From Nautiliales bacterium (GTDB lineage Bacteria; Campylobacterota; Campylobacteria; Campylobacterales; JAADDX01): a DNA stretch of 64,000 nucleotides. Position numbers and translations under genes: made by a program. The notes beneath the pieces were generated by a model. The model made no database searches. It was not told the DNA's origin and worked only from the letters and a program-made list of their open reading frames with translations. Position 1 is the first letter of the stretch. The number at the start of each line of letters is the position of its first letter. Positions 1 through 63,121 of this stretch are shown here, piece after piece. The DNA lies in NCBI GenBank assembly GCA_030826765.1, contig JAUUDM010000029.1, positions 42,181 through 106,180 on the forward strand. Direction: 5' to 3'.

Positions 1-2
1 TT

Positions 3-1307
3 AGTTTAAAACCAAAAATATTTGATATACAAGTAGCACAACAAAAATTCAAAAAGAAACCATTTAGTAAAGATGATTGGATAAATATAATTTTTTATTA
101 TGCTCCTTATAAAGTTTTTGATATAACTCAAACTATTCAGTTTTTACAAAAAGGTAGTTTTGGAATTGCTCTTGATGATATAAGTGGTGCCAATAAATAT
201 TTAGCCAAATCATCAACAATCTCAAATCTAAATCTAAAAATGAGCCAAGGGATAAAAGAGGCCCTTAATTATCACATAGTAATAGCAAATAAAATTTTTG
301 CAAAACTAGCTAAGAAACATAAATATCACTCTATTTTACAATATGATTTAGCATTAACTTATGCTAACCTAAAAGATTATCAAAAAGCTTATATTCATTT
401 TTTAAGAGCCTATCACTTAGATAGTAATAACTATTTAGCCGGTATATTTACACTTATTACAGGTAAAAGAATAGGAATAAAACAAAAATATTTAGATATT
501 ATCCAGTCACAACTAAATGCAGATATAGATTTTTCAAACCAAAAAAATAAAAAATATTCAGCTTTAATAAGTTTTGTAACAAATAATTATTCTGATTCTT
601 TAAGCTTTGTTCAAAGTAATCCAAAAAATACAAAATTTAATCTAGCTATTGAACTGGCAACACTGTATGAATTAGGTGAAAAAACATATTTTACTCAAAA
701 AGCCACTACACTTAAAACAATTGCACCAAAAGATGTAATATCTAATTTAATCTATTTTTATGCAACGCATAATGTAAATAATATTAAAAAGTTTGCACTT
801 GATTACCAAAGAGTTTTTCAAAATTCTTTGAATAATTGGAATTTAAACAGTGTTTATTATGGACCTTTAGTTGCAGGTGAAATGTATATAAAATTTGCTA
901 AACTCTCAGGTCAATTAGCAAAACTAAGAGATAAATTACAAAATGAAGTTTTATCTACAAATAGTGACTTAACTCCACTTCTTAAGAATTTAGCATTTGT
1001 TGAACTTTTTAGTGGTAACACAGAAGAGAGTTATTCACTATTTAATGATTTGATAGATAATAAACATCAAAATGATTCTAAAACACTTTTTTATGGTGCA
1101 GTTGCTTCAATAGCTGCTAATCATCACGCAAATGCCATAGCCTTACTTGCCTTAGCAAAAGCAAAAAATAAGCAAAATTATGAAGCAAGATATGGACTTG
1201 GACTTTTATACCACGAAGCCAAAAATCTTAGAGGTGCAACAGTTCAATATTCAAAAATACCAACTGGCTTTAAAAGTGAGTTTTTTGATTTTAAAGTAAA
1301 ACCTTAA
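3..1307 (+). CDS. TPR-like repeat protein, 5'-truncated by the window edge
   Basis: I translated the frame of track ORF 240..1307 codon by codon and it stays open back to nt 3. No RBS precedes the ATG at 240, so the gene probably starts upstream of the window. TPR-like helical segments are present (YQKAYIHFLRAYHLDSNNYLAG; YEARYGLGLLYHEAKNLRGA). Confidence 0.6.
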   Translation, partial: SLKPKIFDIQVAQQKFKKKPFSKDDWINIIFYYAPYKVFDITQTIQFLQKGSFGIALDDISGANKYLAKSSTISNLNLKMSQGIKEALNYHIVIANKIFAKLAKKHKYHSILQYDLALTYANLKDYQKAYIHFLRAYHLDSNNYLAGIFTLITGKRIGIKQKYLDIIQSQLNADIDFSNQKNKKYSALISFVTNNYSDSLSFVQSNPKNTKFNLAIELATLYELGEKTYFTQKATTLKTIAPKDVISNLIYFYATHNVNNIKKFALDYQRVFQNSLNNWNLNSVYYGPLVAGEMYIKFAKLSGQLAKLRDKLQNEVLSTNSDLTPLLKNLAFVELFSGNTEESYSLFNDLIDNKHQNDSKTLFYGAVASIAANHHANAIALLALAKAKNKQNYEARYGLGLLYHEAKNLRGATVQYSKIPTGFKSEFFDFKVKP

Positions 1308-1315
1308 GGAAAAAA

Positions 1316-3136: not shown

Positions 3137-3161
3137 CATAAGAAATGATTTTTTATATAAT
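3133..3161 (+). promoter_or_regulatory. Consensus sigma70-type promoter (TTGACA-17 nt-TATAAT) for the tRNA cluster
   Basis: TTGACA lies at 3133..3138, followed by an exact 17-nt spacer and TATAAT at 3156..3161, about 20 nt upstream of tRNA-Gly. The -35 hexamer overlaps the TGA stop (3134..3136) of the Maf-like ORF. Confidence 0.7.
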
Positions 3162-3182
3162 TTCAGCCTAATTTAGTTAGAC

Positions 3183-3259
3183 GCGGGAGTAGCTCAGTTG
3201 GCTAGAGCGTCAGCCTTCCAAGCTGAGGGTCGCGGGTTCGAGTCCCGTTTCCCGCTCCA
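3183..3259 (+). tRNA. tRNA-Gly (anticodon UCC)
   Basis: I folded the cloverleaf by hand. Acceptor stem is GCGGGAG/TTCCCGC. Anticodon stem is TCAGC/GCTGA with loop CTTCCAA. T-loop is GGTTCGAGTCC. CCA is encoded. Confidence 0.9.
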
Positions 3260-3318
3260 CTTTTAAATTTCCCAAAACATTTTTATGTTTAAATTTAAAG
3301 TAAAATGACTAAATTATT

Positions 3319-3393
3319 GGCGGCATAGCCAAGTGGCTAAGGCAGGAGCCTGCAAAGCTCTGATCCCCGGTTCGAATCCGGGTGCCGCCTCCA
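3319..3393 (+). tRNA. tRNA-Cys (anticodon GCA)
   Basis: Acceptor stem is GGCGGCA/TGCCGCC. Anticodon loop is CTGCAAA. T-loop is GGTTCGAATCC. CCA is encoded. Confidence 0.9.
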
Positions 3394-3481
3394 AAAAAAA
3401 AATTTGAAAAAGTTTTTTTGAAATTTAAGCTTAGTTTAAGCTAAGTTTTATTATAATTTCACTCCACAAACAAAACCACCT

Positions 3482-3568
3482 GCCTGGGTGGTGGAATTGG
3501 TAGACACAAGGGACTTAAAATCCCTCGGTAGCAATACCGTGCCGGTTCAAGTCCGGCCCTAGGCACCA
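3482..3568 (+). tRNA. tRNA-Leu (anticodon UAA)
   Basis: Acceptor stem is GCCTGGG/CCTAGGC. Anticodon stem is AGGGA/TCCCT with loop CTTAAAA. It has a long variable arm, T-loop GGTTCAAGTCC and an encoded CCA. Confidence 0.9.
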
Positions 3569-3632
3569 TTACAATCAAAACAAAATTTAACTTAAATTTT
3601 ATTTTGAAAATGTAACTACTATAATACTTGTT

Positions 3633-3720
3633 GGAGAGATGGCTGAGTGGTCGAAAGCGGCGGCCTTGAAAGCCGTTGAGGGTCACACCTCCCAGGGTTC
3701 GAATCCCTGTCTCTCCGCCA
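3633..3720 (+). tRNA. tRNA-Ser (anticodon UGA)
   Basis: Acceptor stem is GGAGAGA/TCTCTCC. Anticodon loop is CTTGAAA. It has a long variable arm, T-loop GGTTCGAATCC and an encoded CCA. Confidence 0.9.
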
Positions 3721-3798
3721 CTTATCTGCAAATAAATCTCATAATTTTAAAAAATATGTTAAAAATACTAATTATTTATAAATTTTAAATATTATTTA

Positions 3799-3807
3799 TG
3801 CTATAAT
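3799..3807 (+). promoter_or_regulatory. Extended -10 promoter element TGcTATAAT (lipoprotein gene)
   Basis: Exact TGnTATAAT lies 37 nt upstream of the ATG at 3844. An AAAAGGA RBS lies between them. Confidence 0.5.
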
Positions 3808-3843
3808 TTTACCTCTAAATAAAAAACTTTAAAAGGAAAAAAA

Positions 3844-4149
3844 ATGAAATCAATTTTTAAACTTTCAATCGCAAGTATAGCCGTAATGTTTTTAGCAACA
3901 GGTTGTACATATAGAAACTCAATTGGTGTTTCACAAGTTGATATATCTAAAACAGATATGTCAAAAATTAGCACACTAAAATCTGGTGAAGCATGCCAAT
4001 CATGGTTTTTAATATTCCCAACAGGATTTGATTCTACAGCAAGACAAGCTGCTAAAAATGGTAACATTTCAAAAATTGTATATCAAGAAGCTTCAGATAC
4101 TAATTTTATATTAGGTGGTTCTCACTGTATTAAAGTATATGGAAATTAA
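3844..4149 (+). CDS. Small lipoprotein (possibly TRL-like family)
   Basis: Signal peptide with lipobox MFLATG|C, and a good RBS. The C-terminal part (ARQAAKNGNISKIVYQE...HCIKVYGN) resembles TRL-like lipoproteins from memory. The antisense track ORF 3801..4067 was rejected. Confidence 0.7.
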   Translation: MKSIFKLSIASIAVMFLATGCTYRNSIGVSQVDISKTDMSKISTLKSGEACQSWFLIFPTGFDSTARQAAKNGNISKIVYQEASDTNFILGGSHCIKVYGN

Positions 4150-4188
4150 ATTATTTTAATTTAATTTGAAAAATAATATTTCTCAATT

Positions 4189-4221
4189 ACATATAGCAAT
4201 TAATTTTAATTTGCTATATGT
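4189..4221 (+). terminator. Perfect 11-bp inverted repeat (ACATATAGCAA-11 nt-TTGCTATATGT) downstream of the lipoprotein gene; possible terminator
   Basis: Arms were verified as exact reverse complements. The stem is AT-rich and no clear T-tract follows, so terminator function is uncertain. Confidence 0.35.
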
Positions 4222-4311
4222 ATAGAAAATATCTTCTGATCTAATAAATTAAATTTAAATTACACTACTTATTTAATATATCTTTACTCTAATAAATTTA
4301 ATTTAATTTTT

Positions 4312-4320
4312 TGTTATAAT
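4312..4320 (+). promoter_or_regulatory. Extended -10 element TGtTATAAT upstream of recJ
   Basis: Exact TGnTATAAT lies 21 nt before the recJ ATG at 4341. The leader contains GGGAAAAGG. Confidence 0.45.
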
Positions 4321-4340
4321 TAGGGAAAAGGTTATCTTAT

Positions 4341-5885
4341 ATGCTCACAAAAGAAAAAATCAAACAATTATTATCACAAAAAATTACTGAACTATCTCCA
4401 AAAGATATTTATCATTTTTCACTTCTTAAAAATATGGATAAAGCTACAAAAAGAATAGTAAAAGCTATTCAAAACAACGAAAAAATAACACTCGTTGGTG
4501 ATTATGATGTAGATGGAGTTACCTCTTCTACAATAGTTAATCAATTTTTCAAAAAAATAGACTATCCTTTAGAAATAGTAATACCTGATAGATTCAAAGA
4601 CGGATATGGACTTACAGCAAAACTAATGGATAGAATTAATTGTGATGTTTTAATCACTGTTGATAATGGGATTACAAGTTATGAAGCGGGAATTATTTGC
4701 AAAGAAAGAAATATTGATTTGATAATCACAGACCACCACACTCCGACCTACCCTCTTCCTGAAAGCTACACAATAATCGACCCAAAACAAAAAGATGAAA
4801 CTTTTCCTTTTATTGATATTTGTGGGGCTGAAATAGCTTGGTATTTATGTGCTTCATTAAATAGTGCTTTAAATAGCAAAATAGATATGAAAGAATTTTT
4901 AGATTATTTAGTTTTAGCAATTATTGCTGATGTTATGCCTTTAAATGATTTAAATAGAATTTTGGTAAAAATGGGACTTTCTCGCCTTTCAAAATCACAA
5001 AAGCCTTTTGCATTAGTTTTAAAAGAAGCTTTAAATAAAACTGAATTTAATAGCGAAGACATCGCTTTTAATATTGCACCAAGAATTAACAGTGCTGGAA
5101 GAATGAAAAATGCAAAATTAGCATTTGATTTTTTAAATAGTGAAAATTTAGTCCTTGCAAGAAAACTTTATGATAAATTAAATGAAACAAATGATTATAG
5201 AAAAGAGATTGAAAAAGAGATAAGTGAAATTTGTATAAATAGTAATCAAAATGAACATTTTATAATTGCAAGTGGTGATTTTCACGAGGGAGTAGTCGGA
5301 ATAGTTGCCAGTAGACTTGTTCATCACTACAAACTTCCTGCAATTATTTTTTGCGAAAAAGGAGATATTTTAAAAGGAAGTGGAAGAAGTTTAGGAGATG
5401 TAGATTTATATGAATTAATTAGTAACTGCAAAGAGCTTTTAGAAGGATTTGGAGGACATAAACTCGCTTGTGGACTCTCAATCAAAAAAGAAAACTTAGA
5501 CAAATTCACAACTAAAATAAACTATTTAACTTCACAAATTCCAAAAGACAATTTCTTTTTAGATGAATTTATTTTAGGTGAATTACCTTTAAGTGAATGT
5601 GATTTTGAATTATTAAATATTTTAAAAGAGTTTGAACCATATGGAGAAGCAAATCCAAAACCAAAATTCAGAGCTAAAGTAAAAATAGAAAATATTAGAA
5701 ATTTAAAAGATAATCATTACAAATTAATTGTATCTCAAAATGGAATTTATAAAGATGCGATAATTTTTAAATATGATGGTGAGTTTGATAATGAAATGGA
5801 GATTATTTTTACAGTAAATGAAAATAATTGGAATGGAAACACAAATATCCAACTCATGATAGAAAGATTTGAAGAAATTAAATAA
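4341..5885 (+). CDS. recJ: Single-stranded-DNA-specific exonuclease RecJ
   Basis: DHH-family motifs are present: LVGDYDVDGVTS, ITVDNGI, IITDHH and GFGGHKLACG. Length is 514 aa. Confidence 0.9.
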   Translation: MLTKEKIKQLLSQKITELSPKDIYHFSLLKNMDKATKRIVKAIQNNEKITLVGDYDVDGVTSSTIVNQFFKKIDYPLEIVIPDRFKDGYGLTAKLMDRINCDVLITVDNGITSYEAGIICKERNIDLIITDHHTPTYPLPESYTIIDPKQKDETFPFIDICGAEIAWYLCASLNSALNSKIDMKEFLDYLVLAIIADVMPLNDLNRILVKMGLSRLSKSQKPFALVLKEALNKTEFNSEDIAFNIAPRINSAGRMKNAKLAFDFLNSENLVLARKLYDKLNETNDYRKEIEKEISEICINSNQNEHFIIASGDFHEGVVGIVASRLVHHYKLPAIIFCEKGDILKGSGRSLGDVDLYELISNCKELLEGFGGHKLACGLSIKKENLDKFTTKINYLTSQIPKDNFFLDEFILGELPLSECDFELLNILKEFEPYGEANPKPKFRAKVKIENIRNLKDNHYKLIVSQNGIYKDAIIFKYDGEFDNEMEIIFTVNENNWNGNTNIQLMIERFEEIK

Positions 5886-6747
5886 TTTTACCTATTTCTT
5901 CTTTAAGTCCTTTACCCATTCTCATATTATGATAAGCCCATCTTAAATAATCAAAATCTCCTTGATTTGCAACTTCTTCAGGAGTTAATCCTTTATATTT
6001 TCCTACTTCAAATCTGTAAACTGGTGTTACTTCTTGCAAATAATAATTGATTGAATATCTAACATCGAAATCTAACTCTTGTTCTTGATTATTTAGTAAA
6101 TAATCGATATATCCCATATCTTTTTCAATTACATCTGCAATATTTTCAAATTTATATTTTCCAAAATAGAATTTTTCATATAAAATTGGCTCTTTTGAAA
6201 GCTTTATAAGTTCTTCAATTGTATGTTCTTGTAATAAATGATCAAGTAAAAGTTTTAAAACTATAACATCACCGAGGGAATTATGTGCATTTATCTCAAT
6301 ATTATATTTTTCAGCTATCTCTTTTTCTTTTTTATACAATCCAAGTGAATATCTATTGATTTGCAAAGAATGACGTCCCTCTGGCCATAAATGCTTAATA
6401 CATCTAAAAGTATCAATAATTTGCATTCTGTTTTCAAAATCTTCTTTAAAAAGCATTTCAACATCAAATTTTGCATTATGAATAACCATTACATTATCAG
6501 GTATATTTAATTCATTAAGTCTTTCCCACGGTTTTGTATTATGAATAACATCTGCTTTTTCTATCATTTCAGGAGTTATATGATGAATTGCCATAGCTTC
6601 ACAACTTATAGGAAGTGGTGCTTTACATAAAGTATCATGAATTTCTTCTATTTCATTATTTTCATCTGTTATCAGGAAACTTAGTTGAATTATTCTATCT
6701 TCTTCTTTTGTTCCTGTTGTTTCTGTATCCAATATTACAAACTTCAT
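5878..6747 (-). CDS. DEDDh 3'-5' exonuclease (DnaQ/ExoX-like) with a C-terminal DUF3820-like repeat
   Basis: Exo motifs are ILDTETTG (I), HNAKFDVEML (II) and AHNSLGDV (III, Hx4D). The C-terminus has two FGKYK(F/G)-type segments. The start overlaps the stop of the upstream cyclase gene (ATGA). Confidence 0.8.
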   Translation of the reverse strand: MKFVILDTETTGTKEEDRIIQLSFLITDENNEIEEIHDTLCKAPLPISCEAMAIHHITPEMIEKADVIHNTKPWERLNELNIPDNVMVIHNAKFDVEMLFKEDFENRMQIIDTFRCIKHLWPEGRHSLQINRYSLGLYKKEKEIAEKYNIEINAHNSLGDVIVLKLLLDHLLQEHTIEELIKLSKEPILYEKFYFGKYKFENIADVIEKDMGYIDYLLNNQEQELDFDVRYSINYYLQEVTPVYRFEVGKYKGLTPEEVANQGDFDYLRWAYHNMRMGKGLKEEIGKII

Positions 6748-8387
6748 TTATCACCTTCATAATTTGACGCTTCAAGTAATTTTTGAGAAAACTTAATTAC
6801 TTTGTTTCTTCCTGTATTTTTAGCTTCATAAAGAGCTAAATCAGCATATTTTATTGCTTCCCAAATTTTAGTAGTATGTTTAGGGAAAATAGAAACTCCA
6901 ACAGAAATTGTTTTTGTTAAAGTTTTACCATTTACTGTAATTTGAGTATTTGCAAAAGTTTCCCTTATTTTTTCAGCTACTTTTACAATTCCTTCTTCAT
7001 CTTTTATATTTTGTAAAATAATTATAAATTCTTCCCCACCAAATCTAACTACAAAATCACTTTCTCTTACACTATTTACCATAGTTTTTGCTAACTCTTT
7101 TAACACAGCATCACCTGCATCATGTCCATAAGTATCATTTACTTTTTTGAAATAATCAACATCAACCATCAAAATACCAAGTAATGATTTTTCTCTAATT
7201 GTAGAAGCTGCTATTTTATCAAGTATTTCTTCTAAATATCTTCTATTATAAAGTCCTGTCATTTGATCGGTTAATGAATTTTCTTTCATTAAATTAAGAG
7301 TATATTTTGCTTCTACTATCGAAGCTGCTTCATTTAAATAGCTTTCAACATATGCTATTTCATTTTTATGAGTTTTCCACTCTTCTTTTGAAAAATTTAT
7401 ATTTACAATACCTGTAAATGTCCCACCAGTACTAAATGGAATACAAATATAATTACATCCTTCACAAAAATTTTCTTGACAAATATGTGGAAATTTAAAA
7501 GAATTAACTTCTGAAGCTGTTCTATATGCTCTACACATTTTAGGTAAATGAATCTCACAACAATTTTCACCTTTTTGATAAATAGTTTCAATTTTTTGTT
7601 TTTCATTTAAAACTGCATATATTTTAAAATTTTCTAATTTAAATTTATTTTCTAAAATATCAATAATTCTATTATAAATTTCAGCTGTATTTGAATCTTC
7701 TTCAATAATTTTTTTGAATCTATTTATATCTCCTAAAACTTGCATATTTTTTTCAACATCTACTATTCTATCACCACTTACTGAAGCATTAGGAATTAAA
7801 ACTTTTAAATTATCTTCTATTAATTTAAAATTTTTATCTATTTGAGAAATAAATTGATTATAACTTTCAATTATATATTTTACTTGATTATTAAGTTTTG
7901 TACTTATTTTTTTAGAAAAATCTCCATGTTTAGCTTTTTTCAAACTTTGCCCAAATTCTTCAAAAATATTTAAATAAGGAGTTATTAGCCAGTTTAAAAG
8001 TAAATTTGAAAATAAAATAAATAAAATATTTATAATAACTGTTTCTAAAATAACCTGATATTTTTCATTTTCAAATTCAGCCAAAGATTTAAATTCTATT
8101 TGCAATACTTCTTTATTATTCAAATTTTCACATATAACATTTTTCTTTTTTTCTTTGCATAAATTTTTATCTGATATTCTTATATCTTTAATATTTGGCA
8201 TATTTTTAATAAGATCAAGTGCTTCATTTTTATCTTTTGAATACAAATAAATATCTCTAACTGTATCAGCTGAATGTTTAATAGCAAGTTCTGTAATAGT
8301 TGAAAATCTATACGCAGTAAAAGCGGTAAATATAATTCCACCTACAGTAATAACTAAAAATATAAATAATAATATTTTCTTTTTCAT
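6744..8387 (-). CDS. Membrane-bound diguanylate cyclase (2 TM, HAMP-like linker, Cys-rich GAF-like module, GGDEF)
   Basis: The GGDEF domain shows MVDVDYFKKVNDTYGHDAGD and RFGGEEF. There is an N-terminal TM, a region of about 90 aa, then a second TM. A cysteine cluster CC-x7-C-x17-C-x4-C-x2-C-x3-C spans residues 276-315. Confidence 0.85.
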   Translation of the reverse strand: MKKKILLFIFLVITVGGIIFTAFTAYRFSTITELAIKHSADTVRDIYLYSKDKNEALDLIKNMPNIKDIRISDKNLCKEKKKNVICENLNNKEVLQIEFKSLAEFENEKYQVILETVIINILFILFSNLLLNWLITPYLNIFEEFGQSLKKAKHGDFSKKISTKLNNQVKYIIESYNQFISQIDKNFKLIEDNLKVLIPNASVSGDRIVDVEKNMQVLGDINRFKKIIEEDSNTAEIYNRIIDILENKFKLENFKIYAVLNEKQKIETIYQKGENCCEIHLPKMCRAYRTASEVNSFKFPHICQENFCEGCNYICIPFSTGGTFTGIVNINFSKEEWKTHKNEIAYVESYLNEAASIVEAKYTLNLMKENSLTDQMTGLYNRRYLEEILDKIAASTIREKSLLGILMVDVDYFKKVNDTYGHDAGDAVLKELAKTMVNSVRESDFVVRFGGEEFIIILQNIKDEEGIVKVAEKIRETFANTQITVNGKTLTKTISVGVSIFPKHTTKIWEAIKYADLALYEAKNTGRNKVIKFSQKLLEASNYEGDK

Positions 8388-10846
8388 TCAAATTCTCCTA
8401 AAATTGTATTGATTTTTTCACAAAATCTTGATGTTTTATTAATAATAAAAATATCTCTTACAATGTTTTTTTGTATAGAAATTTTGACATCTTCTACATC
8501 TATTTTGTATTTATCTAAAATTTTCATTATAAATGCTATTATACCATTTTTATTTTTAGTTTTTAGTTTTAAAGCTATATAATTTTTAGAATGATTACAA
8601 TCTGTAATAAATTCCTCTTTTTTTAGCATAGGTTTACTAAATTTTATATCTTTATCTATTTTGAAACTATCTTCAATAATTTCATAAATTAAAAATTTGT
8701 CATCTTCATCTATATTTTCTTCATACTCTATTTTAAAATATTTTACATTATCAATTTTATAAATAGCAATGTGTCCTAATGATAAATGTGAAAGCTTTGC
8801 AAGTAAATAACCTAAATTAAGATTAATATCCTTTTTTATTATTTCTATACTTAAATGCTCTTTTGTATAAATTGAATAATTATATTTTTCACACTCTAAC
8901 ATTCTTTTAGCAATCTTTACTATTTCTTGTACACTATTTCTTAAAAACATTTGAATTGAAGGTGAATTTAATACTTTTTTTTGCCATAATTTTGGTAATA
9001 TTAAAAACTCATCATTTTTTAAAAGTTGCTTTTCTTTTCGTTGTCTCTTATTTGAAGCTAAAATAAGTTCTCTATTTTCTAATACTTCAAGAGTATTATT
9101 ATAAAAAGTTTTTAAAAGATTAGCTTTAAAATCATTAAAAATATTACCTACTGCATCCATATCTGCATAAGTTAAAATATAGAGCATTTTCAAAAACTCT
9201 TTTGTTTGAACTATATTTGCAAAATTTAATAAAACCCTATCATTATCAATATCCTCTCTTTGAGAAATATTTGACATAGTTGTATGATATTTTATAAGTT
9301 TTTTTGCTATTTCTATCTCTTCATTTTTGAATTTTAAATTTTGCATAAATTCTGCTACTAATTTTGCTCCAACTAAATGATGGTCTTCTTTTCTTCCTTT
9401 TCCTAAATCGTGAAAAAGTGCTACAATTTTTAAAACTTGTCTATTTTTTTCATTTAAACTATCAAACAACTCTTTTATATTCTCATATTTAATATTTTCT
9501 AAATTATATAAAGTTTTAATAGAATGAATATCTACAGGATATTGATGATATCCATCAAATTGAGCTAAATTTTCTACTTGTTTAAAGGCAGGAATTATGC
9601 TTGAAAGTTTATCTGCTTTATAAAGCGCTTTAATAACTGGATAAAGATTTTCTTTTTTAAATAGTTTTTTTAATTGTTTATTTGTAATATTTACTTTTTG
9701 ATGATAAAAAAGATTTACCAAACTTACATCATAAGTTTTAAAATCATTTTCCAAAAACACTTTAAAACTTTCTCTCATAGAATCACTATTATGCCAATTT
9801 ATATAAATTTTATCATCACAAATATAATACCATTTAGCAATTCTATTTATTTTACTAATGGTTTTACAATCAAATAAAAATGGTTTTAATATTTTCTTTA
9901 TATTTATCGAAGTAAATCTATTTATTGTCCATAATGATTTTAATAAATCTCTTACAAAAATCCTTTCTGCCTTTAATCTTATAGAATCTTTATATCCAAG
10001 TTTTAAAGCTATATCTCTTTGATAATCAAGTAAAACTACATCTTTATGAGATTTTGTGATAATGTGTAAATGTGTTCGAACTCTAAAAATAAACTCTAAA
10101 GCATTTCTATACTCTTTATACTCTTCTTCTGAAGATAGAATCCCTACTAATTCGGAGTTGTTTTTTACTCCATAAATAACATTCGCTATCCAATAAAGAG
10201 TATTTGCATCTCTCATTCCACCAAAACCATGTTTAATATCTGGCTCCATTGAAAGAGGATATTTTTTATGATATTCTTGTATTTTTTTATATCTTGCAAT
10301 TACAAATTCTTTTTGATTATCAAATCTGATTTTTTTCAGCTCATTTTCTACCTCAACCCACAAATAACGACTTCCAAAAATATATCTACTTTCTAAAATA
10401 GCAGTTTTTATCATTATATCTGTTTTACTAACTTCTAAAAGTTCATCTATTTTATGAACCCTATGTCCTATTTCCAATCCCAAATCCCAAAGCATTGTTA
10501 CAAAAGTTTCAATAATCGGAGTTAAATTATAACCCTTTATCTCTTTATAAACTATCATAATATCAATATCAGAATATAAAGACAACTGCTCTCGCCCAAA
10601 ACTTCCAAGGGCTGTCAAAACTATTGGCAAAGAGTTTATATTTGGTCTATAAAATCCAAATTTTTTTTGTAATACAAATTTAAAAACAATAGTTATAAAT
10701 TCATCCATCTTTTTTGTATATTTTATAAAAAACTGTTTACCACTAGCTTCTAAATCAATATTGTCTCTATATTTTTTAATTTCATTTCTTAACTCTTTTA
10801 TAATTTCAAATTCATTTTTATTTGAATATATAATTTCTTCTAACAT
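8384..10846 (-). CDS. glnD: [Protein-PII] uridylyltransferase/uridylyl-removing enzyme GlnD
   Basis: 820 aa. It has a nucleotidyltransferase motif (GSFGREQLSLYSDIDI), an HD domain (ALFHDLGKG ... HHLVGA) and C-terminal ACT-like repeats. Confidence 0.85.
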   Translation of the reverse strand: MLEEIIYSNKNEFEIIKELRNEIKKYRDNIDLEASGKQFFIKYTKKMDEFITIVFKFVLQKKFGFYRPNINSLPIVLTALGSFGREQLSLYSDIDIMIVYKEIKGYNLTPIIETFVTMLWDLGLEIGHRVHKIDELLEVSKTDIMIKTAILESRYIFGSRYLWVEVENELKKIRFDNQKEFVIARYKKIQEYHKKYPLSMEPDIKHGFGGMRDANTLYWIANVIYGVKNNSELVGILSSEEEYKEYRNALEFIFRVRTHLHIITKSHKDVVLLDYQRDIALKLGYKDSIRLKAERIFVRDLLKSLWTINRFTSINIKKILKPFLFDCKTISKINRIAKWYYICDDKIYINWHNSDSMRESFKVFLENDFKTYDVSLVNLFYHQKVNITNKQLKKLFKKENLYPVIKALYKADKLSSIIPAFKQVENLAQFDGYHQYPVDIHSIKTLYNLENIKYENIKELFDSLNEKNRQVLKIVALFHDLGKGRKEDHHLVGAKLVAEFMQNLKFKNEEIEIAKKLIKYHTTMSNISQREDIDNDRVLLNFANIVQTKEFLKMLYILTYADMDAVGNIFNDFKANLLKTFYNNTLEVLENRELILASNKRQRKEKQLLKNDEFLILPKLWQKKVLNSPSIQMFLRNSVQEIVKIAKRMLECEKYNYSIYTKEHLSIEIIKKDINLNLGYLLAKLSHLSLGHIAIYKIDNVKYFKIEYEENIDEDDKFLIYEIIEDSFKIDKDIKFSKPMLKKEEFITDCNHSKNYIALKLKTKNKNGIIAFIMKILDKYKIDVEDVKISIQKNIVRDIFIINKTSRFCEKINTILGEFE

Positions 10847-10859
10847 TTTTGCCCTTTTT

Positions 10860-10868
10860 TGCTATAAT
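10860..10868 (+). promoter_or_regulatory. Extended -10 element TGcTATAAT upstream of the radical-SAM menaquinone gene
   Basis: Exact TGnTATAAT, followed by an AAAAGGA RBS and a TTG start at 10891. Confidence 0.45.
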
Positions 10869-10890
10869 CCATTAAAAAAAAGGATTATAT

Positions 10891-11955
10891 TTGCAAACTA
10901 TTATATCAAAAATAGAAAATAAAGATAGAATTAATTTTGATGAAGCTTTAAAATTATATGATTTAGATTTAGCAACACTTGGAGAATTAGCAAACAATAT
11001 TCGTGAAGATAAATTTGGTAAAAAAACTTATTTTAATATAAATAGACATATAAATCCTACAAATATTTGTAAAGATGTTTGTAAATTTTGTGCCTTTAGT
11101 GCAAATAGAAAAAATCCAAATCCTTACACAATGAATATCGATGAAATTGTAGATACTGCTATAAAAGCCCACGAAAAAGGTGCAAAAGAGATTCATATAG
11201 TTTCAGCTCACAATCCAGACGCAGGACTTGAATGGTATCTTGGAATGTTTAAAGAGATTAGAAAAGCCCTTCCAGATATTCACATAAAAGCCTTAACAGC
11301 TGCTGAGATTAATTTTTTAAGTGAAACTTATAATCTAAGCTATGAAGAAGTAATCGATAAAATGATAGAAAACGGAGTTGATTCTATGCCTGGTGGTGGT
11401 GCTGAAATCTTTGATGAAAAAATAAGAGATATTATTTGTAAAGGAAAAGTAAGTAGTGAAAATTGGCTAAAAATTCACGAAATTTGGCACAAAAGAGATA
11501 AAAAAAGTAATGCAACTATGCTTTTTGGTCATATTGAAAGCAGAAAAGATAGAATTGACCATATGATGAGGCTTAGAAATCTTCAAGATAAAACAGGTGG
11601 ATTTAATACTTTTATTCCTTTAGTTTATCAAAGAGAAAATAACTATTTAAAAGTTGAAAATTTTCCAACTGGAAATGAAATTTTAAAAACTTATGCAATA
11701 GCAAGAATTGTTTTAGATAACATTCTTCATCTAAAAGCATATTGGGTAACTTCTACTATAAATCTAGCTTTAATAGCTCAAGAATATGGGGCTGATGATT
11801 TAGATGGAACTATTCAAAAAGAATCAATCAACTCAGCCGCCGGAGCAAAAAGTGCAAATGGAATGAAATTAGATGAATTTATTCACCTTATAAAAGATAG
11901 TGGATTTATCCCTGTTGAGAGAGATTCACTTTATAATGAATTGAAAGTTTGGTGA
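10891..11955 (+). CDS. Radical-SAM enzyme of the futalosine menaquinone pathway (MqnE/MqnC family)
   Basis: Contains the Cx3Cx2C motif CKDVCKFC. Size (354 aa) and overall layout fit the MqnC/MqnE/CofH family. I cannot tell MqnC from MqnE without an alignment. The start is TTG. Confidence 0.65.
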   Translation: MQTIISKIENKDRINFDEALKLYDLDLATLGELANNIREDKFGKKTYFNINRHINPTNICKDVCKFCAFSANRKNPNPYTMNIDEIVDTAIKAHEKGAKEIHIVSAHNPDAGLEWYLGMFKEIRKALPDIHIKALTAAEINFLSETYNLSYEEVIDKMIENGVDSMPGGGAEIFDEKIRDIICKGKVSSENWLKIHEIWHKRDKKSNATMLFGHIESRKDRIDHMMRLRNLQDKTGGFNTFIPLVYQRENNYLKVENFPTGNEILKTYAIARIVLDNILHLKAYWVTSTINLALIAQEYGADDLDGTIQKESINSAAGAKSANGMKLDEFIHLIKDSGFIPVERDSLYNELKVW

Positions 11956-13330: not shown

Positions 13331-13781
13331 TTTGTAGTTCTTTTAACTTCTCTTTTACTTTTTCTACATGCCCTTTTACTCTTACATTTCTCCACTCATG
13401 TGCTATTTCACCTTCTGGATTAATTATAAAAGTACTTCTAATTACACCTTCATATTCTCTTCCATAATTTTTTTTCAGTCCCCAAGCTCCATATGCTTTT
13501 AAAACACTTTTATCTTCATCACTTAAAAGAGTAATTTTTAAATCTTTTTTTTCAATGAAATTTCTATGTTTTTTAGGACTATCAGGACTAACTCCCAAAA
13601 TCACTGCATCAAGTTCTTCAAACTCTTCAAGCTCATTTGTAAAATCACACGCTTCAGTCGTACATCCTGGTGTATTATCTTTTGGATAAAAATATAATAC
13701 TACCCATTTTCCACTTAAATCTCTAAGACAAATCTCTGTTTCATCCTGATTTGGCAGGCAAAATTTTGGTGCTTTCATCAT
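13314..13781 (-). CDS. bcp: Thiol peroxidase Bcp (peroxiredoxin)
   Basis: Peroxidatic-Cys motif FYPKDNTPGCTTEAC. Length is 155 aa. Confidence 0.85.
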   Translation of the reverse strand: MMKAPKFCLPNQDETEICLRDLSGKWVVLYFYPKDNTPGCTTEACDFTNELEEFEELDAVILGVSPDSPKKHRNFIEKKDLKITLLSDEDKSVLKAYGAWGLKKNYGREYEGVIRSTFIINPEGEIAHEWRNVRVKGHVEKVKEKLKELQSANNS

Positions 13782-14140
13782 AAGTCCCCTTTTAGATATA
13801 AATTCACAACTTCATCAGCTTTATCTCCGTGTTTTTTTCTAATTTTCACTATTTCAATATTAGCTTCTTTTAATGCTTCTTGCATATTAGGTCCAACTCT
13901 TCTAACTAAAACTTTATCAACATCAGGAATTGCTTTTTCTACTTGATGTTTATGCTCATTTGTGTGTTCTACGGTTGAATGATTATGATGCTCGTCGTGT
14001 TCATCGTGAGAATGTGAATGTTTTGGATTTTCTCTTAATTCTAAAAACTTATCATCTTCAAATATAGTAAAAAACGGAGCTTGTCCTGTTCTTTCAAAAA
14101 TTTCTAATCCTTCATCAAATACTGGTACTGCTAGCTTCAT
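13778..14140 (-). CDS. NifB/NifX-like (dinitrogenase FeMo-cofactor-binding fold) small protein with a His-rich insert
   Basis: MKLAVPV...GQAPFFTIFE at the N-terminus and an IEIVK...G ending match the layout of the NifX/NifB C-terminal family. The insert HSHSHDEHDEHHNHSTVEHTNEHKH has 11 His in 25 residues. Confidence 0.55.
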   Translation of the reverse strand: MKLAVPVFDEGLEIFERTGQAPFFTIFEDDKFLELRENPKHSHSHDEHDEHHNHSTVEHTNEHKHQVEKAIPDVDKVLVRRVGPNMQEALKEANIEIVKIRKKHGDKADEVVNLYLKGDL

Positions 14141-20451: not shown

Positions 20452-20478
20452 AGAGTTTAGAAAGATTTTCTAAACTCT
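20452..20478. terminator. 12-bp perfect inverted repeat between convergent genes, overlapping the last codons of amt
   Basis: Arms AGAGTTTAGAAA and TTTCTAAACTCT are exact reverse complements separated by GAT. It lies 12 nt after the stop of the 18410..20440 gene. No strong T-tract is present. Confidence 0.4.
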
Positions 20479-21623
20479 GGATATGCTTCTATACCACATT
20501 CAACTGAATCAAGACCTTCAATTTCCTCTTCTTCATCTGCTCTAAATGGAGAAATTTTATTGATAATAAAAATAGTTATATAACTTAAAGAAAATGCTAA
20601 AATTCCTATAACCACAATTCCTTTTAATTGAGTCATAAATGAAGCAGTACCAAAAATAGCTACTGCTAATGTCCCCCAAATACCATTTATTAAATGAACA
20701 CTAAGTGCCCCTACAGGGTCATCAATTTTTAATTTATCAAAAAATGGAACTGCATAAAAAACTAAAGCCCCACCAATTAATCCTACAATAATAGGTGCAT
20801 AAATATTCATCACATCTGCCCCTGCAGTAATCGCTACAAGTCCACCTAAAGCACCATTTAAAATCATTGTAATATCAAATTTTTTATAATATATATAACT
20901 TAAAATCATCACAATAAGTCCACCTGCAAGTCCAGCAGTATTTGTATTCATAATAGTCAAAGCAACAACTTCTACATCTTTTTTTGTGGCAATACTTCCT
21001 ACACTTCCACCATTAAATCCAAACCATCCAATCCAAAGTAAAAAGCCACCTAAAACAACTAAAGGAATATTACTTGCAGGAATAACTCTAACTTTTCCAT
21101 TTTTATATCTTCCTTTTCTTGGTCCAATAACTAAAATAGCTGCCAAAAGCGCCCAACCACCAGTTGAGTGAATAACAGTTGAACCTGCTAAATCTTTTAA
21201 ATTTGAAATATCAAACATTGTACCACTTAAAAAATTACTTCCCCAAGTTAAATTTACTGCTATTGGATAAATAACTCCAGCCATAGCTACTGTAAAAAAT
21301 ATAAGTGGAATAATTCTCGTTCTTTCACTAACACCTCCACTCATAATATTTACTGTTTTACCAACGAATGCCATTTGAAATAAAAACAGTGCCCAAGCAG
21401 ACATACTTTCACTCCCAAAAGCACCAAAAGCTATATGATAACCAACCAATAAAAACATCATACTTGCCACTAAATAAATCATTGTATTTGTAGTCAAAAC
21501 TGCAGTTACATTTTTTGTCCTTACAAGCCCTGCTTCAAGCATTGCAAAACCTGGCACCATTAAAATAATTAATACAAATGCAAAAAGTGTAAAAAATGTA
21601 TTTAAAATATATGCTATATCCAT
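20457..21623 (-). CDS. amt: Ammonium transporter (Amt family), copy 1, no signal peptide
   Basis: 388 aa, about 11 TM. Amt signatures are present: FNGGS, GGLVAITAGADV, DDPVGALSVHLINGIWG. Confidence 0.9.
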   Translation of the reverse strand: MDIAYILNTFFTLFAFVLIILMVPGFAMLEAGLVRTKNVTAVLTTNTMIYLVASMMFLLVGYHIAFGAFGSESMSAWALFLFQMAFVGKTVNIMSGGVSERTRIIPLIFFTVAMAGVIYPIAVNLTWGSNFLSGTMFDISNLKDLAGSTVIHSTGGWALLAAILVIGPRKGRYKNGKVRVIPASNIPLVVLGGFLLWIGWFGFNGGSVGSIATKKDVEVVALTIMNTNTAGLAGGLIVMILSYIYYKKFDITMILNGALGGLVAITAGADVMNIYAPIIVGLIGGALVFYAVPFFDKLKIDDPVGALSVHLINGIWGTLAVAIFGTASFMTQLKGIVVIGILAFSLSYITIFIINKISPFRADEEEEIEGLDSVECGIEAYPEFRKSF

Positions 21624-21689
21624 AAATTCTCCTTAAACAAAAATTTTTTCTATTATAATATAATAATAAAATTTTTACATATATAAAAT

Positions 21690-21706
21690 TGCTTAAATTT
21701 TAAGCA
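21690..21706. promoter_or_regulatory. 17-bp perfect palindrome TGCTTAAA-T-TTTAAGCA between divergent amt and PII promoters (candidate nitrogen-regulator operator)
   Basis: Arms were verified as reverse complements. It lies 32 nt from the minus-strand TATAAT (21657..21652) and 31 nt from the plus-strand TGaTAAAAT (21735..21743). The same dyad occurs at 39011..39027 and a variant at 49138..49154. Confidence 0.6.
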
Positions 21707-21751
21707 GTTAAAAATTTTGATAAACTAAAAATTATGATAAAATTACAATAA

Positions 21752-22102
<351 letters not shown>

Positions 22103-33652: not shown

Positions 33653-34344
33653 CATTTAATATTTTATTTAATAATGTCAGAGGAGAAAAAGGTTATCAAA
33701 CTTTATGGGGGTTTTCTTGTTACATTCCCGAATTAAATCTACTTTTTGATACTGGAAGTAATGGAAGATTTTTACTTAAAAATGCTAAAAGAATGGGAAT
33801 TGATTTTAAAAAAGTAAAATATCTTTTTATTTCTCATTCTCATTGGGACCATATTGGTGGAATTGATACAGTTATCGAAGAAAATCCAAATATTACAATT
33901 TTTGTACCAAGTTCACTTTCAAAACATTTAATAAAAGATTTAAAAACTTTAGCAAAAGAAGTAATTATAATTAATGATAAATTCTCTGAAATTTTACCAA
34001 ATGTTTACACTACTGGAATTATGCCTCCAATTGAAGAGCAATCAATGGCAATCAATACTCCTAATGGACTAATTATAATAACTGGTTGTGGTCATTCTGG
34101 AATTATAAATATCCAAAATAGAATCAAAGAAAATTTAAATAAAGAAATTTATTATATTTTAGGTGGATTTCATCTACTTAGAAGTTCTAATGAAGAGATT
34201 GAGAAAGTTATTCAAAATCTTGATACAAAATTCATATCCCCTACTCACTGCACAGGTGAAAAAGCTATCAAAATGATTAAAACCAAATTTCAAGATAATT
34301 TTATAAAAGCAGGAGTTGGAAATATAATTAATTTAGAGATTTAA
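33649..34344 (+). CDS. MBL-fold metallo-hydrolase
   Basis: HSHWDHIGG (HxHxDH) motif. Length is 231 aa. The start overlaps the prfA stop (ATGA). Confidence 0.7.
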
Positions 34345-36244
34345 AATAATCTACCCCCCCCACCGATAATTCGGGAGAAAATTCAATAACAAATTCAGCT
34401 CCATTTTCACTATTTTTAGCATAAATATCTGCTTGCATATTTCTTAAAATCATTTTTGACATATATAAACCAATTCCAGTTCCTTGCACACCTTTTGTAG
34501 AAAAATATGGCTCAAAAATTTTATTTATATTATCTGTTTTTATTCCACCACCATTATCTTTGATATATAATTTTTTATTATTTTTATCTAGAATAATAGT
34601 TATTTTACCTTCTTTTATTTTGTTTTCTAAAATTGCATCTTTTGAGTTTGTTATTAAATTCAAAATCACTTGTGCAAATTGATTTTTATACCCAATAACT
34701 TCAAAATCTTCGCCTAAAATTTCTAAATCTATATTATGAGTTTTAAGCTGTGCAGAAACTAAACTACAAACTTTATCTAACTCTTTTTTTATACTAAATT
34801 TTTCTTCTTTTTTATCACTTTTAAAAAAGTTTCTAAAATCATCTATAGTATTCGACATAAATTTAATAGTTTTCATATTTTTTTTGATAAACTCTTCACA
34901 CTCTTCATTTTCTTCACAACATTCAAACATTTCAGGAAGAGATTGAATATAAAGAGCAATAGCATTTAAAGGTTGTCTCCATTGATGAGCAATCATTCCT
35001 ATCATTTCACCCATTTGTGCAAGTTTTGCTTGTTCTTGAAGCATTTTATCTTTTTTTATAGATTCTTTTACTGCTTTATCGATTCTATTTTCCAAATCAT
35101 CTTTATAAATATTAAAAGCTTTTTTTGTTTTTTTTGATAATCTGTATGCAAAAAATAATACAATACTTAAAACTAAAAATAAAACACCAAAAAATATAAA
35201 ATAAAGCATTGTAGTTTCTTTTTCTATTTCTTCTTTTTGTTTATCTATAATTTTATTTATCTCACTTAAATAAACTCCTGTCCCTATAATCCAATTAAAT
35301 TTTGGATAATACTCTACATAAGATATCTTTTCTTCAATTTTATTAGTTTCTGGATTTTTCCAATAATATCTAACAAATCCTCCACCATTTAAAGCAACTT
35401 CTTTAAATCTTTTTGCAAATAAATTTCCTTTTAAATCTTTTAAATTACACCAACTTTTTCCAATTTTTCCCTTTGCATTTGTATCTACTAACATTATACA
35501 ATTTTTAGCATTCATAATAAAAAAATATTGATTTTCCCCATATCTTTTATTGTTAATTTTATTTAATTGTTCTTTTTGAAACTTTTTTAATGAATTATCA
35601 ATATAAAATCCTGTCCCTACTACCCAATTAAGCTCCGGAATATATTTTACAAATACTACTTTTTTATATGCTTTTTTAGTGTTAGTTGGTTTTATATAAT
35701 AAATATTGAAAAACCCTTCTCTATTTTCTTTGATTATTTTTTTACTTTTTTTGAAAACATAAGTTCCTTTTGCATCTTGAAAATTTATCATATTCTTACC
35801 TATTAACTTTTTAAAGGCATGCACTAACATTATATTTGTATCATAATTATAAACAAAATAATAACCATCCCCATTTTTAAATCTAACTGCACTAACTGTT
35901 TGTTTAATTATATTTTTTAGTTGTTCTTTTGATAAATTAGGATTATTTTTAATAACTCTTTTTATAATATTATCTGCTTCATAAACCCTATCTTTTATAT
36001 ATTTTTTTTCTTTGTTTATTAAGTGTTTATAATCATTATCTATTCCAGCAATTGTACTTTTTACTTCCATTTTTGCTAACTCTTTTTTAGAATATAAAAG
36101 TATAGTTTTATAATCATTTAACTCTTTTGCTTTATATTCACTCACAATAAAAAATAAACTTATACCTAAAAGGAGTGCGAATAATAAAAGTGAATAAATT
36201 GGTAATCTTATTATATTTTTTGTTATTTCTTCTGATTTATCCAT
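34328..36244 (-). CDS. Sensor histidine kinase with tandem periplasmic Cache_2-like domains
   Basis: N-terminal TM, then two repeats of the pattern GYYFVY.../YFFIMN... ...W(V/I)IGTG(F/V)Y, then a second TM. H-box is MIAHQWRQPLN. The HATPase domain shows DNGGGI and GTGIGLYMS. No response regulator gene is adjacent. Confidence 0.8.
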   Translation of the reverse strand: MDKSEEITKNIIRLPIYSLLLFALLLGISLFFIVSEYKAKELNDYKTILLYSKKELAKMEVKSTIAGIDNDYKHLINKEKKYIKDRVYEADNIIKRVIKNNPNLSKEQLKNIIKQTVSAVRFKNGDGYYFVYNYDTNIMLVHAFKKLIGKNMINFQDAKGTYVFKKSKKIIKENREGFFNIYYIKPTNTKKAYKKVVFVKYIPELNWVVGTGFYIDNSLKKFQKEQLNKINNKRYGENQYFFIMNAKNCIMLVDTNAKGKIGKSWCNLKDLKGNLFAKRFKEVALNGGGFVRYYWKNPETNKIEEKISYVEYYPKFNWIIGTGVYLSEINKIIDKQKEEIEKETTMLYFIFFGVLFLVLSIVLFFAYRLSKKTKKAFNIYKDDLENRIDKAVKESIKKDKMLQEQAKLAQMGEMIGMIAHQWRQPLNAIALYIQSLPEMFECCEENEECEEFIKKNMKTIKFMSNTIDDFRNFFKSDKKEEKFSIKKELDKVCSLVSAQLKTHNIDLEILGEDFEVIGYKNQFAQVILNLITNSKDAILENKIKEGKITIILDKNNKKLYIKDNGGGIKTDNINKIFEPYFSTKGVQGTGIGLYMSKMILRNMQADIYAKNSENGAEFVIEFSPELSVGGVDYFKSLN

Positions 36245-36437
36245 GAAGTTTTCCTTTTAAATAGTTTTATTTAAAATAATATCATATTTTCATTACAATA
36301 CAATACAATAATAATTGTAAAAACTATTCTACTCAATAAAGCTAAATATATTGTGAAAAATTTAATACTTACGATATAAAAATGAAAAATTATCTAATAA
36401 AAGTTTCGAAAATTTTGATAATAAAGTAAAAGGCCTT

Positions 36438-37298
36438 TTATTCTTCTTTTGATTTTGTTAAAAATATTAGCACAGCTAAAGATAAAATGATAAAAGATAC
36501 ACCACCCATTAAATAAAGGGCATTTATCATTTTTTCATAATTATGAATCGAAATTTTAAATACAATTATTAATGTTTCAATAGAAAGAGCAATTAAAATT
36601 GTTACTAAAAATTTTGTTAATACTTTAATCTCTAATTTTGATTCTTTTGAATAACTTTTAAAAAATACTTCTTGTTCTAAAATAGTTCTTGCTAAATCAA
36701 ATATAGCAAGTCCCAATGTAGTTGCTATAACTGGTTTAAAAATTCCATCAATATTTATATCACTACCTTGTATAAAATGATTTATAAAGTTATATCCACC
36801 ATAAATAATTGTTGAAATTGAAAGTATCATCATAAAAAATCCTGCAATAAAATAAAAACTTTTAATGATTTTACTAAAATAAATATGTTTTTCTATAATC
36901 CCCACGCGTTCAAGTAGCTTTTCTAAATCAAAATCTAAAAAGATTATATTATCCCCATCTTTTTTTGAGACTGTGATACAAAGTGTTCCAGTTGAACTTT
37001 GATAAGGTTTTGTAAAAGCAAAACCATTATTTTTAATTGTAAGTTTATTTATAAGATAACTTCTATCTTTATTTTTTTCATCATTATCACTATTTTTTTT
37101 ATATATATTTGGTGAGATTTGAATATTTGTTTTGGCATCTACTATGTAAATTAATTCAAGAGAGGGGAAAGTTAAAAAAAGTTGTTTATAAAAATCATCT
37201 GATTGATTTTCTAATTTTCCTAAACTTTCAATACTATTTTCTATAAAATTTTCAATCTTTCCTTTATTTTTAATATAAAGATCAATATATTCTTTCAA
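36438..37298 (-). CDS. Uncharacterised membrane protein: ~140-aa soluble N-terminal (Cache/PDC-like?) domain plus 4 TM helices
   Basis: 286 aa. No TM precedes the N-terminal domain. The C-terminal half has four hydrophobic helices. Only 30 nt, with no hairpin, separate it from the upstream amt stop, and an AAAGGA RBS is present. Confidence 0.6.
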   Translation of the reverse strand: MKEYIDLYIKNKGKIENFIENSIESLGKLENQSDDFYKQLFLTFPSLELIYIVDAKTNIQISPNIYKKNSDNDEKNKDRSYLINKLTIKNNGFAFTKPYQSSTGTLCITVSKKDGDNIIFLDFDLEKLLERVGIIEKHIYFSKIIKSFYFIAGFFMMILSISTIIYGGYNFINHFIQGSDINIDGIFKPVIATTLGLAIFDLARTILEQEVFFKSYSKESKLEIKVLTKFLVTILIALSIETLIIVFKISIHNYEKMINALYLMGGVSFIILSLAVLIFLTKSKEE

Positions 37299-37328
37299 AA
37301 AATATCCTTTAATTTAAAGAAGAAAGAA

Positions 37329-38973
<1,645 letters not shown>

Positions 38974-39009
38974 TTATAATATTATTTAGATTAATTTTTA
39001 TATAGATAG

Positions 39010-39028
39010 TTGCTTAAATTTTAAGCAA
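39010..39028. promoter_or_regulatory. 19-bp perfect palindrome TTGCTTAAA-T-TTTAAGCAA upstream of glnK-amtB (same dyad as 21690..21706)
   Basis: The 17-bp core at 39011..39027 is identical to the site at 21690..21706. It lies 32 nt from the minus-strand TATAAT (38978..38973) and 65 nt upstream of the glnK ATG. Confidence 0.6.
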
Positions 39029-45160: not shown

Positions 45161-45237
45161 GGGTCTTTAGCTCAGTTGGTTAGAGCACTCGGCTCATAAC
45201 CGAGTGGTCCGGAGTTCGAGTCTCCGAGGACCCACCA
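45161..45237 (+). tRNA. tRNA with CAU anticodon (elongator Met or lysidine-modified Ile2; not initiator-like)
   Basis: Acceptor stem is GGGTCTT/AGGACCC. Anticodon stem is CTCGG/CCGAG with loop CTCATAA. T-arm is CGGAG-TTCGAGT-CTCCG. CCA is encoded. It starts 1 nt after the rodA stop. Confidence 0.88.
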
Positions 45238-45266
45238 TTTATTTTCTACTTATACTTGGAGCAAAA

Positions 45267-49154: not shown

Positions 49155-49224
49155 CTTTTTTATACACTTTTACTTAAAATCATACTATAATTATTACAAA
49201 TTTTAAATAAAATAAGGAGTTTAA

Positions 49225-62977: not shown

Positions 62978-62979
62978 AG

Positions 62980-63098: not shown

Positions 63099-63121
63099 TA
63101 TGAAAAATCAAAAGGTTTTAA

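Follow-up and report, generated by a model that had tools for sequence, protein, structure and literature searches.

A 17-bp dyad precedes the ammonium-assimilation genes in a 64,000-nucleotide stretch of DNA from a Nautiliales bacterium (contig JAUUDM010000029.1; the whole stretch is called the window below), which has a G+C content of 26.7%. The dyad is of odd length, with two arms of eight nucleotides around one central base (8-1-8), and it occurs three times: once between the divergent genes for an ammonium transporter and a PII nitrogen regulatory protein, once upstream of glnK-amtB and, as a variant, once upstream of glnA. An earlier note on this DNA had given the positions and sequences of the three copies (at 21690, 39011 and 49138), all of which we reproduced from the sequence, and had named the adjoining genes as amt, PII, glnK-amtB and glnA, which NCBIfam confirmed. 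The genes, dyads and −10 elements are as follows.

20457–21623, minus strand: amt, ammonium transporter gene (marine-type Amt; TIGR03644 and TIGR00836 matches, both under curated cut-offs; Pfam PF00909 precomputed on the protein and its homologues)
21652–21657, minus strand: −10 hexamer TATAAT of the predicted amt promoter, 32 nt from the dyad, inferred from sequence
21690–21706, no strand: perfect 17-bp dyad TGCTTAAATTTTAAGCA, that is TGCTTAAA-T-TTTAAGCA, in the amt/PII gap (matrix score 25.4 bits)
21735–21743, plus strand: extended −10 TGaTAAAAT of the predicted PII (glnB-like) promoter, its hexamer TAAAAT starting 31 nt past the dyad, inferred from sequence
21764–22102, plus strand: PII nitrogen regulatory protein gene (NCBIfam)
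37329–38946, minus strand: glnK-amtB operon (glnK 38608–38946, amtB 37329–38621; NCBIfam)
38973–38978, minus strand: predicted −10 (TATAAT) for glnK-amtB, at 32 nt from the dyad
39011–39027, no strand: second dyad, an identical TGCTTAAATTTTAAGCA, 5' of glnK-amtB
49138–49154, no strand: variant dyad TGATTAAAATTTAATCA, that is TGATTAAA-A-TTTAATCA, 5' of glnA
49186–49191, plus strand: predicted −10 (TATAAT) for glnA, at 31 nt from the dyad
49225–50643, plus strand: glnA, type I glutamine synthetase gene (NCBIfam)

All three exact copies stand in promoter regions of ammonium-assimilation genes, and the copy in the 140-bp gap between amt and the PII gene is common to both divergent promoters. We ran the pattern search proposed in the earlier note within the window: TGMTTAAANTTTAAKCA had three exact matches, all of them at these promoters, versus 0.01 expected from shuffled sequence. 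A weight matrix made from related sites scored the three dyads at 22–25 bits, and the runner-up match in the 64-kb window reached 14 bits and lay inside a coding region. Chance accounts for only a small share among the explanations that we considered. At glnA, the dyad lies 11 nt from the start codon of a divergent pabC-like gene (48566–49126), so the promoter of that gene must either overlap the putative operator or lie within the glnA leader.

The four promoters keep the dyad at a nearly constant distance from the −10 element. Recomputing the spacing gave the same 31–32 nt as first noted, and a −10-like hexamer would stand at an offset of 31 or 32 nt by chance in 3.8% of cases, as estimated from the intergenic DNA of the window. 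The centre of the dyad is 40–41 nt ahead of the −10, which supports the proposed centring near −52; this figure assumes that the hexamer spans −12 to −7, a placement predicted from the sequence. The three dyad-bearing intergenic regions of the window have no GG-N10-GC element (sigma54 promoter), in keeping with the earlier view that this is not a sigma54/NtrC arrangement.

The dyad and its spacing are conserved at the glnA promoters of relatives. A metagenome scan with GlnA yielded 25 loci at 64–76% identity (L127–L151), 23 of which were scanned for the dyad. TG[A/C]TTAAWTTTTAA[G/T]CA stood 65–77 nt before the glnA start codon in 13 of these 23 loci and in a locus from a Sulfurimonas genome (L035), and TGTATAWWWWWTATACA was found at the equivalent position in three further loci. 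In an alignment of 16 dyad-bearing glnA upstream regions, the only invariant parts of the dyad were TG, A6, T12-A13 and CA; outside it, the invariant columns were four of the −10 hexamer (T, A, A, T) and two of the start codon. The DNA between dyad, −10 and start codon varied freely and no conserved −35 was present in the alignment, yet the −10 began 31 or 32 nt past the dyad in all 16 promoters, and also in L149.

Between lineages, the two sides of the dyad change together, giving the half-sites TGCTTAAA, TGATTAAA, TGTCTAAA, TGTTTAAA and TGTATAA. Half-site symmetry was kept in 87.5% of cells, and the observed covariation was reached by 0 of 500 shuffles. Covarying arms would also suit a palindrome that is no protein site and works as a nucleic-acid structure (a cruciform, or the hairpin of a terminator or attenuator) or is a repeat element. 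One related locus (L123) carries an extra exact copy directly past the amt stop codon (11172–11188), followed by a T-run, and there the copy may be a terminator hairpin; many of the 120 listed exact matches in other genomes, described below, likewise lie inside longer terminator-like palindromes. As an account of the window dyads, a structural role is nonetheless highly improbable. For two of the three copies the flanking genes are divergent, so that no transcript ends there, and on each side the dyad precedes the −10. A search for terminator-like sites and a comparison with Rfam were both negative; the stem would consist of seven A/T-rich pairs around a 3-nt loop. Positions 3 and 15 are asymmetric, and so unpaired, in 5 of the 16 promoters, whereas TG/CA and A6/T12 never vary, a pattern that fits a protein with degenerate positions rather than a stem. 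The symmetric covariation of the half-sites, the conserved spacing and the further sites at nitrogen genes together support the earlier proposal of an operator for a dimeric factor.

These further sites came from tracing homologues of the window Amt and PII to their contigs. In L123, whose Amt is 82% identical, a divergent PII/amt pair shares the dyad TGCTTAAAATTTAGGCA, with a −10 at 31 nt on both sides; in four other loci (L216, L219, L220 and L223) the dyad is TGTCTAAATTTTAGACA, with a −10 at 32 nt on both the amt and the PII side. Two dyads, spaced 53–54 bp apart, are present in Nitratifractor salsuginis (L125) and in L207, with 42 nt between the proximal dyad and the −10. In L208 and L209, the −10 elements of amtB and of a divergent nitrate-assimilation operon, narK-(kinase)-nasA-nirA, each have a dyad at 32 nt, and a third dyad is placed 21 nt from that of a second amt (amt3). 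In Sulfurospirillum cavolei (L044), a putative gene for a urea ABC transporter has the exact 17-mer at 32 nt from its −10. The predicted sites before narK-nasA-nirA, amtB and the urea transporter gene are in loci outside the training set of the matrix. Offsets of 21, 31–32 and 42 nt keep the dyad on the same face of the helix. Phylogenetic footprinting, which the earlier note had put forward as a check, thus found the dyad kept in orthologous Campylobacterota promoters, 31–32 nt from the −10, with spacer DNA that is not conserved.

The L208/L209 locus (1–11176) is a nitrogen island. It encodes NarK, a fused PP2C phosphatase/Ser-Thr kinase, an Fe-S protein, NasA and NirA, with amtB-glnK-amt divergent from them, and its dyads are at 7979, 8119 and 9929. 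A GG-N10-GC element only about 20 nt past the amtB dyad of L208 was considered as a sigma54 promoter and judged coincidental.

The sequence of the dyad has a counterpart in the binding sites of Fis. The inner 15 bp, GCTTAAATTTTAAGC and GATTAAAATTTAATC, fit at every specified position the published Fis consensus GNTYAAAWTTTRANC, which was defined independently of the present analysis (PMC6907758). In the 64-kb window, this consensus matched exactly the three dyads, versus 0.11 matches expected. Where the window dyads differ from one another, at position 3/15 and in the centre, the consensus has N and W. G-7, Y-4 and R-3, which are the positions that matter for Fis binding, are kept in all lineage variants.

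A scan of 185,579 species genomes for the exact 17-mer returned at least 120 loci in arbitrary order, and 118 of the 120 listed matches were intergenic. Among the matches listed, the largest group by downstream gene was dusB, with TGCTTAAANTTTAAGCA 30–75 nt upstream in 12 loci; these are from Betaproteobacteria (L009, L012, L023, L061, L075, L090, L100, L106 and L116), Alphaproteobacteria (L015 and L033) and Geobacteraceae (L092). In both betaproteobacterial loci that were read (L100 and L106), fis follows dusB; in Alphaproteobacteria, dusB goes by the name of nifR3 and opens the nifR3-ntrB-ntrC operon. The dusB-linked 17-mer has the look of a conserved site through which Fis and NtrC would regulate their own operons, dusB-fis and nifR3-ntrBC. 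Also among the matches listed, the 17-mer lies about 150 nt upstream of glnK-amtB in two sphingomonads (L025, 3335–3351; L105, 4182–4198), before urtA in a member of the Hyphomicrobiales (L069, 3316–3332) and before an alphaproteobacterial gene for an NCS1/allantoin permease (L114, 7607–7623). These four sites are A/T-rich despite genome G+C contents of 50–65% and are presumably alphaproteobacterial NtrC sites. Control of the dusB-fis, nifR3, glnK-amtB and urtA promoters by Fis or NtrC is known elsewhere.

In Caulobacter, the motif from NtrC chromatin immunoprecipitation sequencing (ChIP-seq) has been described as related to the Fis motif; this NtrC lacks the GAFTGA loop, regulates the sigma70 promoters of glnBA, glnK and its own operon, and has a ChIP peak labelled CCNA_01813-ntrB (PMC10274813). 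The earlier note knew of no counterpart to the dyad. For the sequence itself this did not hold, given the fit to the Fis consensus and the 17-mers at alpha- and betaproteobacterial promoters of the NtrC/Fis type; for the Campylobacterota it did, since in the literature searched (including work on Arcobacter, Nautilia, Sulfurimonas and related genera) we found neither an operator nor a nitrogen regulator described for this phylum. A large comparative regulon study left the Campylobacterota out.

We conclude that the dyad is very probably the operator of a nitrogen regulator. In the explanation that we prefer, which we consider likely when taken as a whole, a homodimeric helix-turn-helix (HTH) factor would control the ammonium-assimilation regulon of this Nautilia-like member of the Campylobacterota and of its relatives: amt, glnB, glnK-amtB and glnA in the window, and in relatives also genes for nitrate assimilation and urea uptake. 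A dimer of this factor would sit on TGnnYA-N5-TRnnCA with its centre some 52 bp ahead of the start, on the helix face 31–32 nt from the extended −10 of a sigma70-type promoter without a conserved −35, and would most likely activate transcription under nitrogen limitation through contact with RNA polymerase. In the amt/PII gap, a single dimer equidistant from the two divergent −10 elements would serve both promoters. Because the dyads have the features that a Fis-type HTH requires (G-7, a pyrimidine-purine step at −4/−3 and an A/T-rich centre), the most likely binder would be an NtrC-family or Fis-like protein acting without sigma54, as NtrC does in Caulobacter and Rhodobacter. We hold this assignment to a Fis-type HTH protein of the NtrC family only tentatively. 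The nitrogen signal would probably reach the factor through the GlnD-PII system encoded in the window.

Several observations weigh against one or another part of this explanation. Six related loci (L124, L215, L217, L218, L221 and L222) are without the dyad; the operator is gained or lost between near relatives. In L210, the dyad TGTTTAAAGTTTAAACA (9943–9959) is 31 nt from the PII −10 and only 10 nt from the amt −10; for amt, this geometry fits repression better than activation and suggests opposite effects on amt and PII in that lineage. Such a position, which overlaps the −35 region, would suit a repressor or anti-activator that is bound in nitrogen excess and blocks upstream (UP-like) contacts of RNA polymerase. 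So would the glnA dyad, which all but touches the pabC-like start codon, and the dyad-less relatives, which keep amt and PII with good −10 elements, so that these promoters can evidently work without the site. As a general account of the dyad, however, repression seems unlikely to us: the strict helical phase upstream of the −10 (21, 31–32 and 42 nt) is the signature of an activator, repressor sites normally overlap −35, −10 or +1, and no conserved −35 is present. On these grounds we favour activation for the regulon at large. Five of the dyad-less loci (L215, L217, L218, L221 and L222) encode an identical PII protein and have amt-PII spacers of only 51–78 bp.

Other observations bear on the identity of the binder. 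The dyad is a single dimer site at −52 and not one of NtrC's usual tandem sites at least 100 bp upstream; tandem sites occur only in L125 and L207, 53–54 bp apart. With a G+C content of 27%, a genome could also acquire A/T-rich palindromes of Fis-like sequence through convergence. About 60 of the 67 window open reading frames (ORFs) of at least 80 amino acids were searched against Pfam or NCBIfam. Neither the window nor about 400 kb of related loci yielded a transcription factor gene of any kind, be it for a Fis-type HTH protein or for a bacterial enhancer-binding protein. Arcobacter butzleri has been reported to lack the NtrB/NtrC family (PMC2147049), and NtrC orthologues have been reported missing from epsilonproteobacteria.

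A new nitrogen regulator of some other family (IclR-, GntR-, XRE-, TetR- or Lrp-like) may thus have converged on an A/T-rich 17-bp dyad of the form TG-N13-CA, with the likeness to Fis and NtrC sites being coincidental. The absence of a Fis-type HTH gene from the loci at hand and of NtrC orthologues from the class favours such a protein, as do the lock of a single dimer site at about −52, which is typical of classical sigma70 activators and not of enhancer-binding proteins, and the free drift of half-site positions 3–5 between lineages. It is a serious candidate that stops short of being probable: a Fis consensus defined externally picks out exactly the three window dyads, the invariant G-7, Y-4 and R-3 are the positions relevant to Fis, and the identical 17-mer stands before glnK-amtB, urtA and nifR3-ntrBC in alphaproteobacteria.

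Candidates for the regulator, or for its sensor, were examined in the window and set aside. A soluble kinase (45267–46226) proved to be the flagellar kinase FlgS. The longest reading of its ORF (45204–46226) is overlapped by a tRNA gene (45161–45234), and the true start is probably the ATG at about 45267. A Cache-domain kinase encoded 3' of glnK-amtB (34328–36244) was rejected as a nitrogen sensor, since its homologues adjoin REC-GGDEF or other genes and not nitrogen or NtrC-type genes. Its gene belongs to a same-strand run (34328–38946) in which glnK-amtB is followed by a gene for a 286-aa membrane protein without a family match and then by that for this orphan double-Cache histidine kinase. 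The DUF2603 gene beside the glnK dyad was discounted as encoding the binder, its product being acidic and without a DNA-binding signature. In relatives, the flanks of glnA, amt and PII hold no syntenic regulator. The block conserved upstream of glnA corresponds to the 3' end of an adjacent gene, which by its sequence has the look of a PHP-family phosphatase, no family search having been made.

The predicted signalling chain is encoded in part within the window, which holds a glnD gene and two PII genes.

8384–10846, minus strand: glnD-like PII uridylyltransferase gene (Pfam GlnD_UR_UTase above cut-off; TIGR01693 UTase_glnD below its curated cut-off)

The product of the glnD-like gene is probably the upstream sensor of this chain. 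The weight-matrix scan of the window placed no dyad near it.

As to the origin of the DNA, the window Amt is 89% identical to a protein from a metagenome-assembled genome (MAG) of Nautilia sp. and 73–76% identical to proteins from Nitratifractor, Nautiliaceae and Hydrogenimonas, and the window PrfA falls within a 90% cluster of 'Nautilia sp.' MAG proteins. A kinship with Arcobacter, assumed earlier, was not borne out; the likeness of PrfA and Amt points to a Nautilia-like, vent-type member of the Campylobacterota. Elsewhere in the window, a gene for a small Nitro_FeMo-Co protein (NifX/NifB C-terminal-like; 13778–14140) adjoins a peroxiredoxin gene, and a long ORF (62978–64000) that runs off the window end has the look of the DUF262/GmrSD type by its sequence, without a check against family libraries.

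Campylobacterota are the dominant primary producers at hydrothermal vents. It is a reasonable though tentative possibility that the dyad marks a global nitrogen regulator of free-living Campylobacterota that is new, either a protein from outside the NtrC family or a minimal Fis-like or NtrC-derived protein that would work under GlnD-PII, as one dimer bound at −52 of sigma70 promoters and without NtrB and sigma54. If so, the PII pathway would be wired in a new way in a phylum without described nitrogen control. The dyad offers a 17-bp bait for the regulator and defines a candidate regulon of amt, glnB/K, glnA and the genes for nitrate and urea assimilation, and the promoter rule can be scanned for across genomes, as TGNNYAWWWWWTRNNCA followed after 31–32 nt (or after 21 or 42 nt) by a TAnnnT hexamer. 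The dyad also ties a nitrogen site to the Fis/NtrC recognition code. Morett and Bork reportedly proposed in 1998 that Fis derives from the DNA-binding domain of NtrC, and the dyad bears on that proposal.

We compared the dyads with five known systems. The enteric NtrC site (TGCACC-N5-GGTGCA) is likewise 17 bp long, has the TGC...GCA ends seen in two of the three window dyads and serves the same target genes; it differs in the inner half-site, in its sigma54 promoter and in its position, at least 100 bp upstream as against 40 nt from the −10 here. The enteric consensus had no match at any nitrogen promoter of the window, even with three mismatches allowed. The cyanobacterial NtcA site (GTA-N8-TAC, at −41.5) resembles the dyad in being the site of a global nitrogen activator, phase-locked upstream of a −10-only promoter, but it is an even-length dyad of the CRP type in a class II position, whereas the window dyad is of odd length and without GTA/TAC.

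In promoter architecture, the closest system is TnrA/GlnR of Bacillus subtilis. The TnrA site is a 17-bp dyad at about −49 to −51 that activates amtB-glnK and nitrate-assimilation promoters. A TnrA/GlnR-type regulator of the MerR family could in principle bind the window dyad as it does at Bacillus nrgAB (amtB-glnK), given the shared odd-length TG...CA form with an A/T-rich centre, the position about 50 bp upstream of the start and the placement before amtB-glnK and nitrate-assimilation genes. We consider this very unlikely. A search of the window for the consensus TGTNAN7TNACA gave no match, in line with the earlier note, to which the dyad did not fit that consensus, and the discriminating positions 3, 5, 13 and 15 differ in every site; no ORF like TnrA or GlnR was seen in the window or in the about 400 kb of related loci. 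We know of no member of this family from the Campylobacterota.

Escherichia coli Fis, whose dusB-fis promoter is autoregulated, shares with the dyads the consensus that the inner 15 bp of all three fit, and the same 17-mer precedes dusB-fis in many betaproteobacteria. The window dyads are extended relative to the Fis consensus by T-8/A+8. Fis is a growth-phase nucleoid protein of loose specificity with hundreds of sites, whereas the window sites are few, nearly perfect and confined to nitrogen genes, and to our knowledge no stand-alone Fis occurs in the Campylobacterota.

Alphaproteobacterial NtrC, which acts on sigma70 promoters in Caulobacter crescentus and Rhodobacter capsulatus, has the same core regulon of glnA, glnK-amtB, PII and urea and nitrate uptake. 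Independence of sigma54, the lack of GG-N10-GC and the presence of GlnD and PII are further common traits, and the exact 17-mer of the window also precedes alphaproteobacterial glnK-amtB, urtA and nifR3 (dusB). The alphaproteobacterial sites are in tandem and further upstream, in contrast to one phase-locked dimer site at about −52 here, and no gene for NtrB or NtrC was found in the window or the about 400 kb of related loci. The classical sigma54 enhancer arrangement is excluded, and an NtrC-family binder is still compatible with the data. The operator of a global nitrogen regulator is an element of an ordinary kind, in sequence like NtrC/Fis-type sites and in architecture like TnrA sites; what is new here is the phylum, the rule of 31–32 nt between dyad and −10, and the use of one dyad for two divergent promoters.

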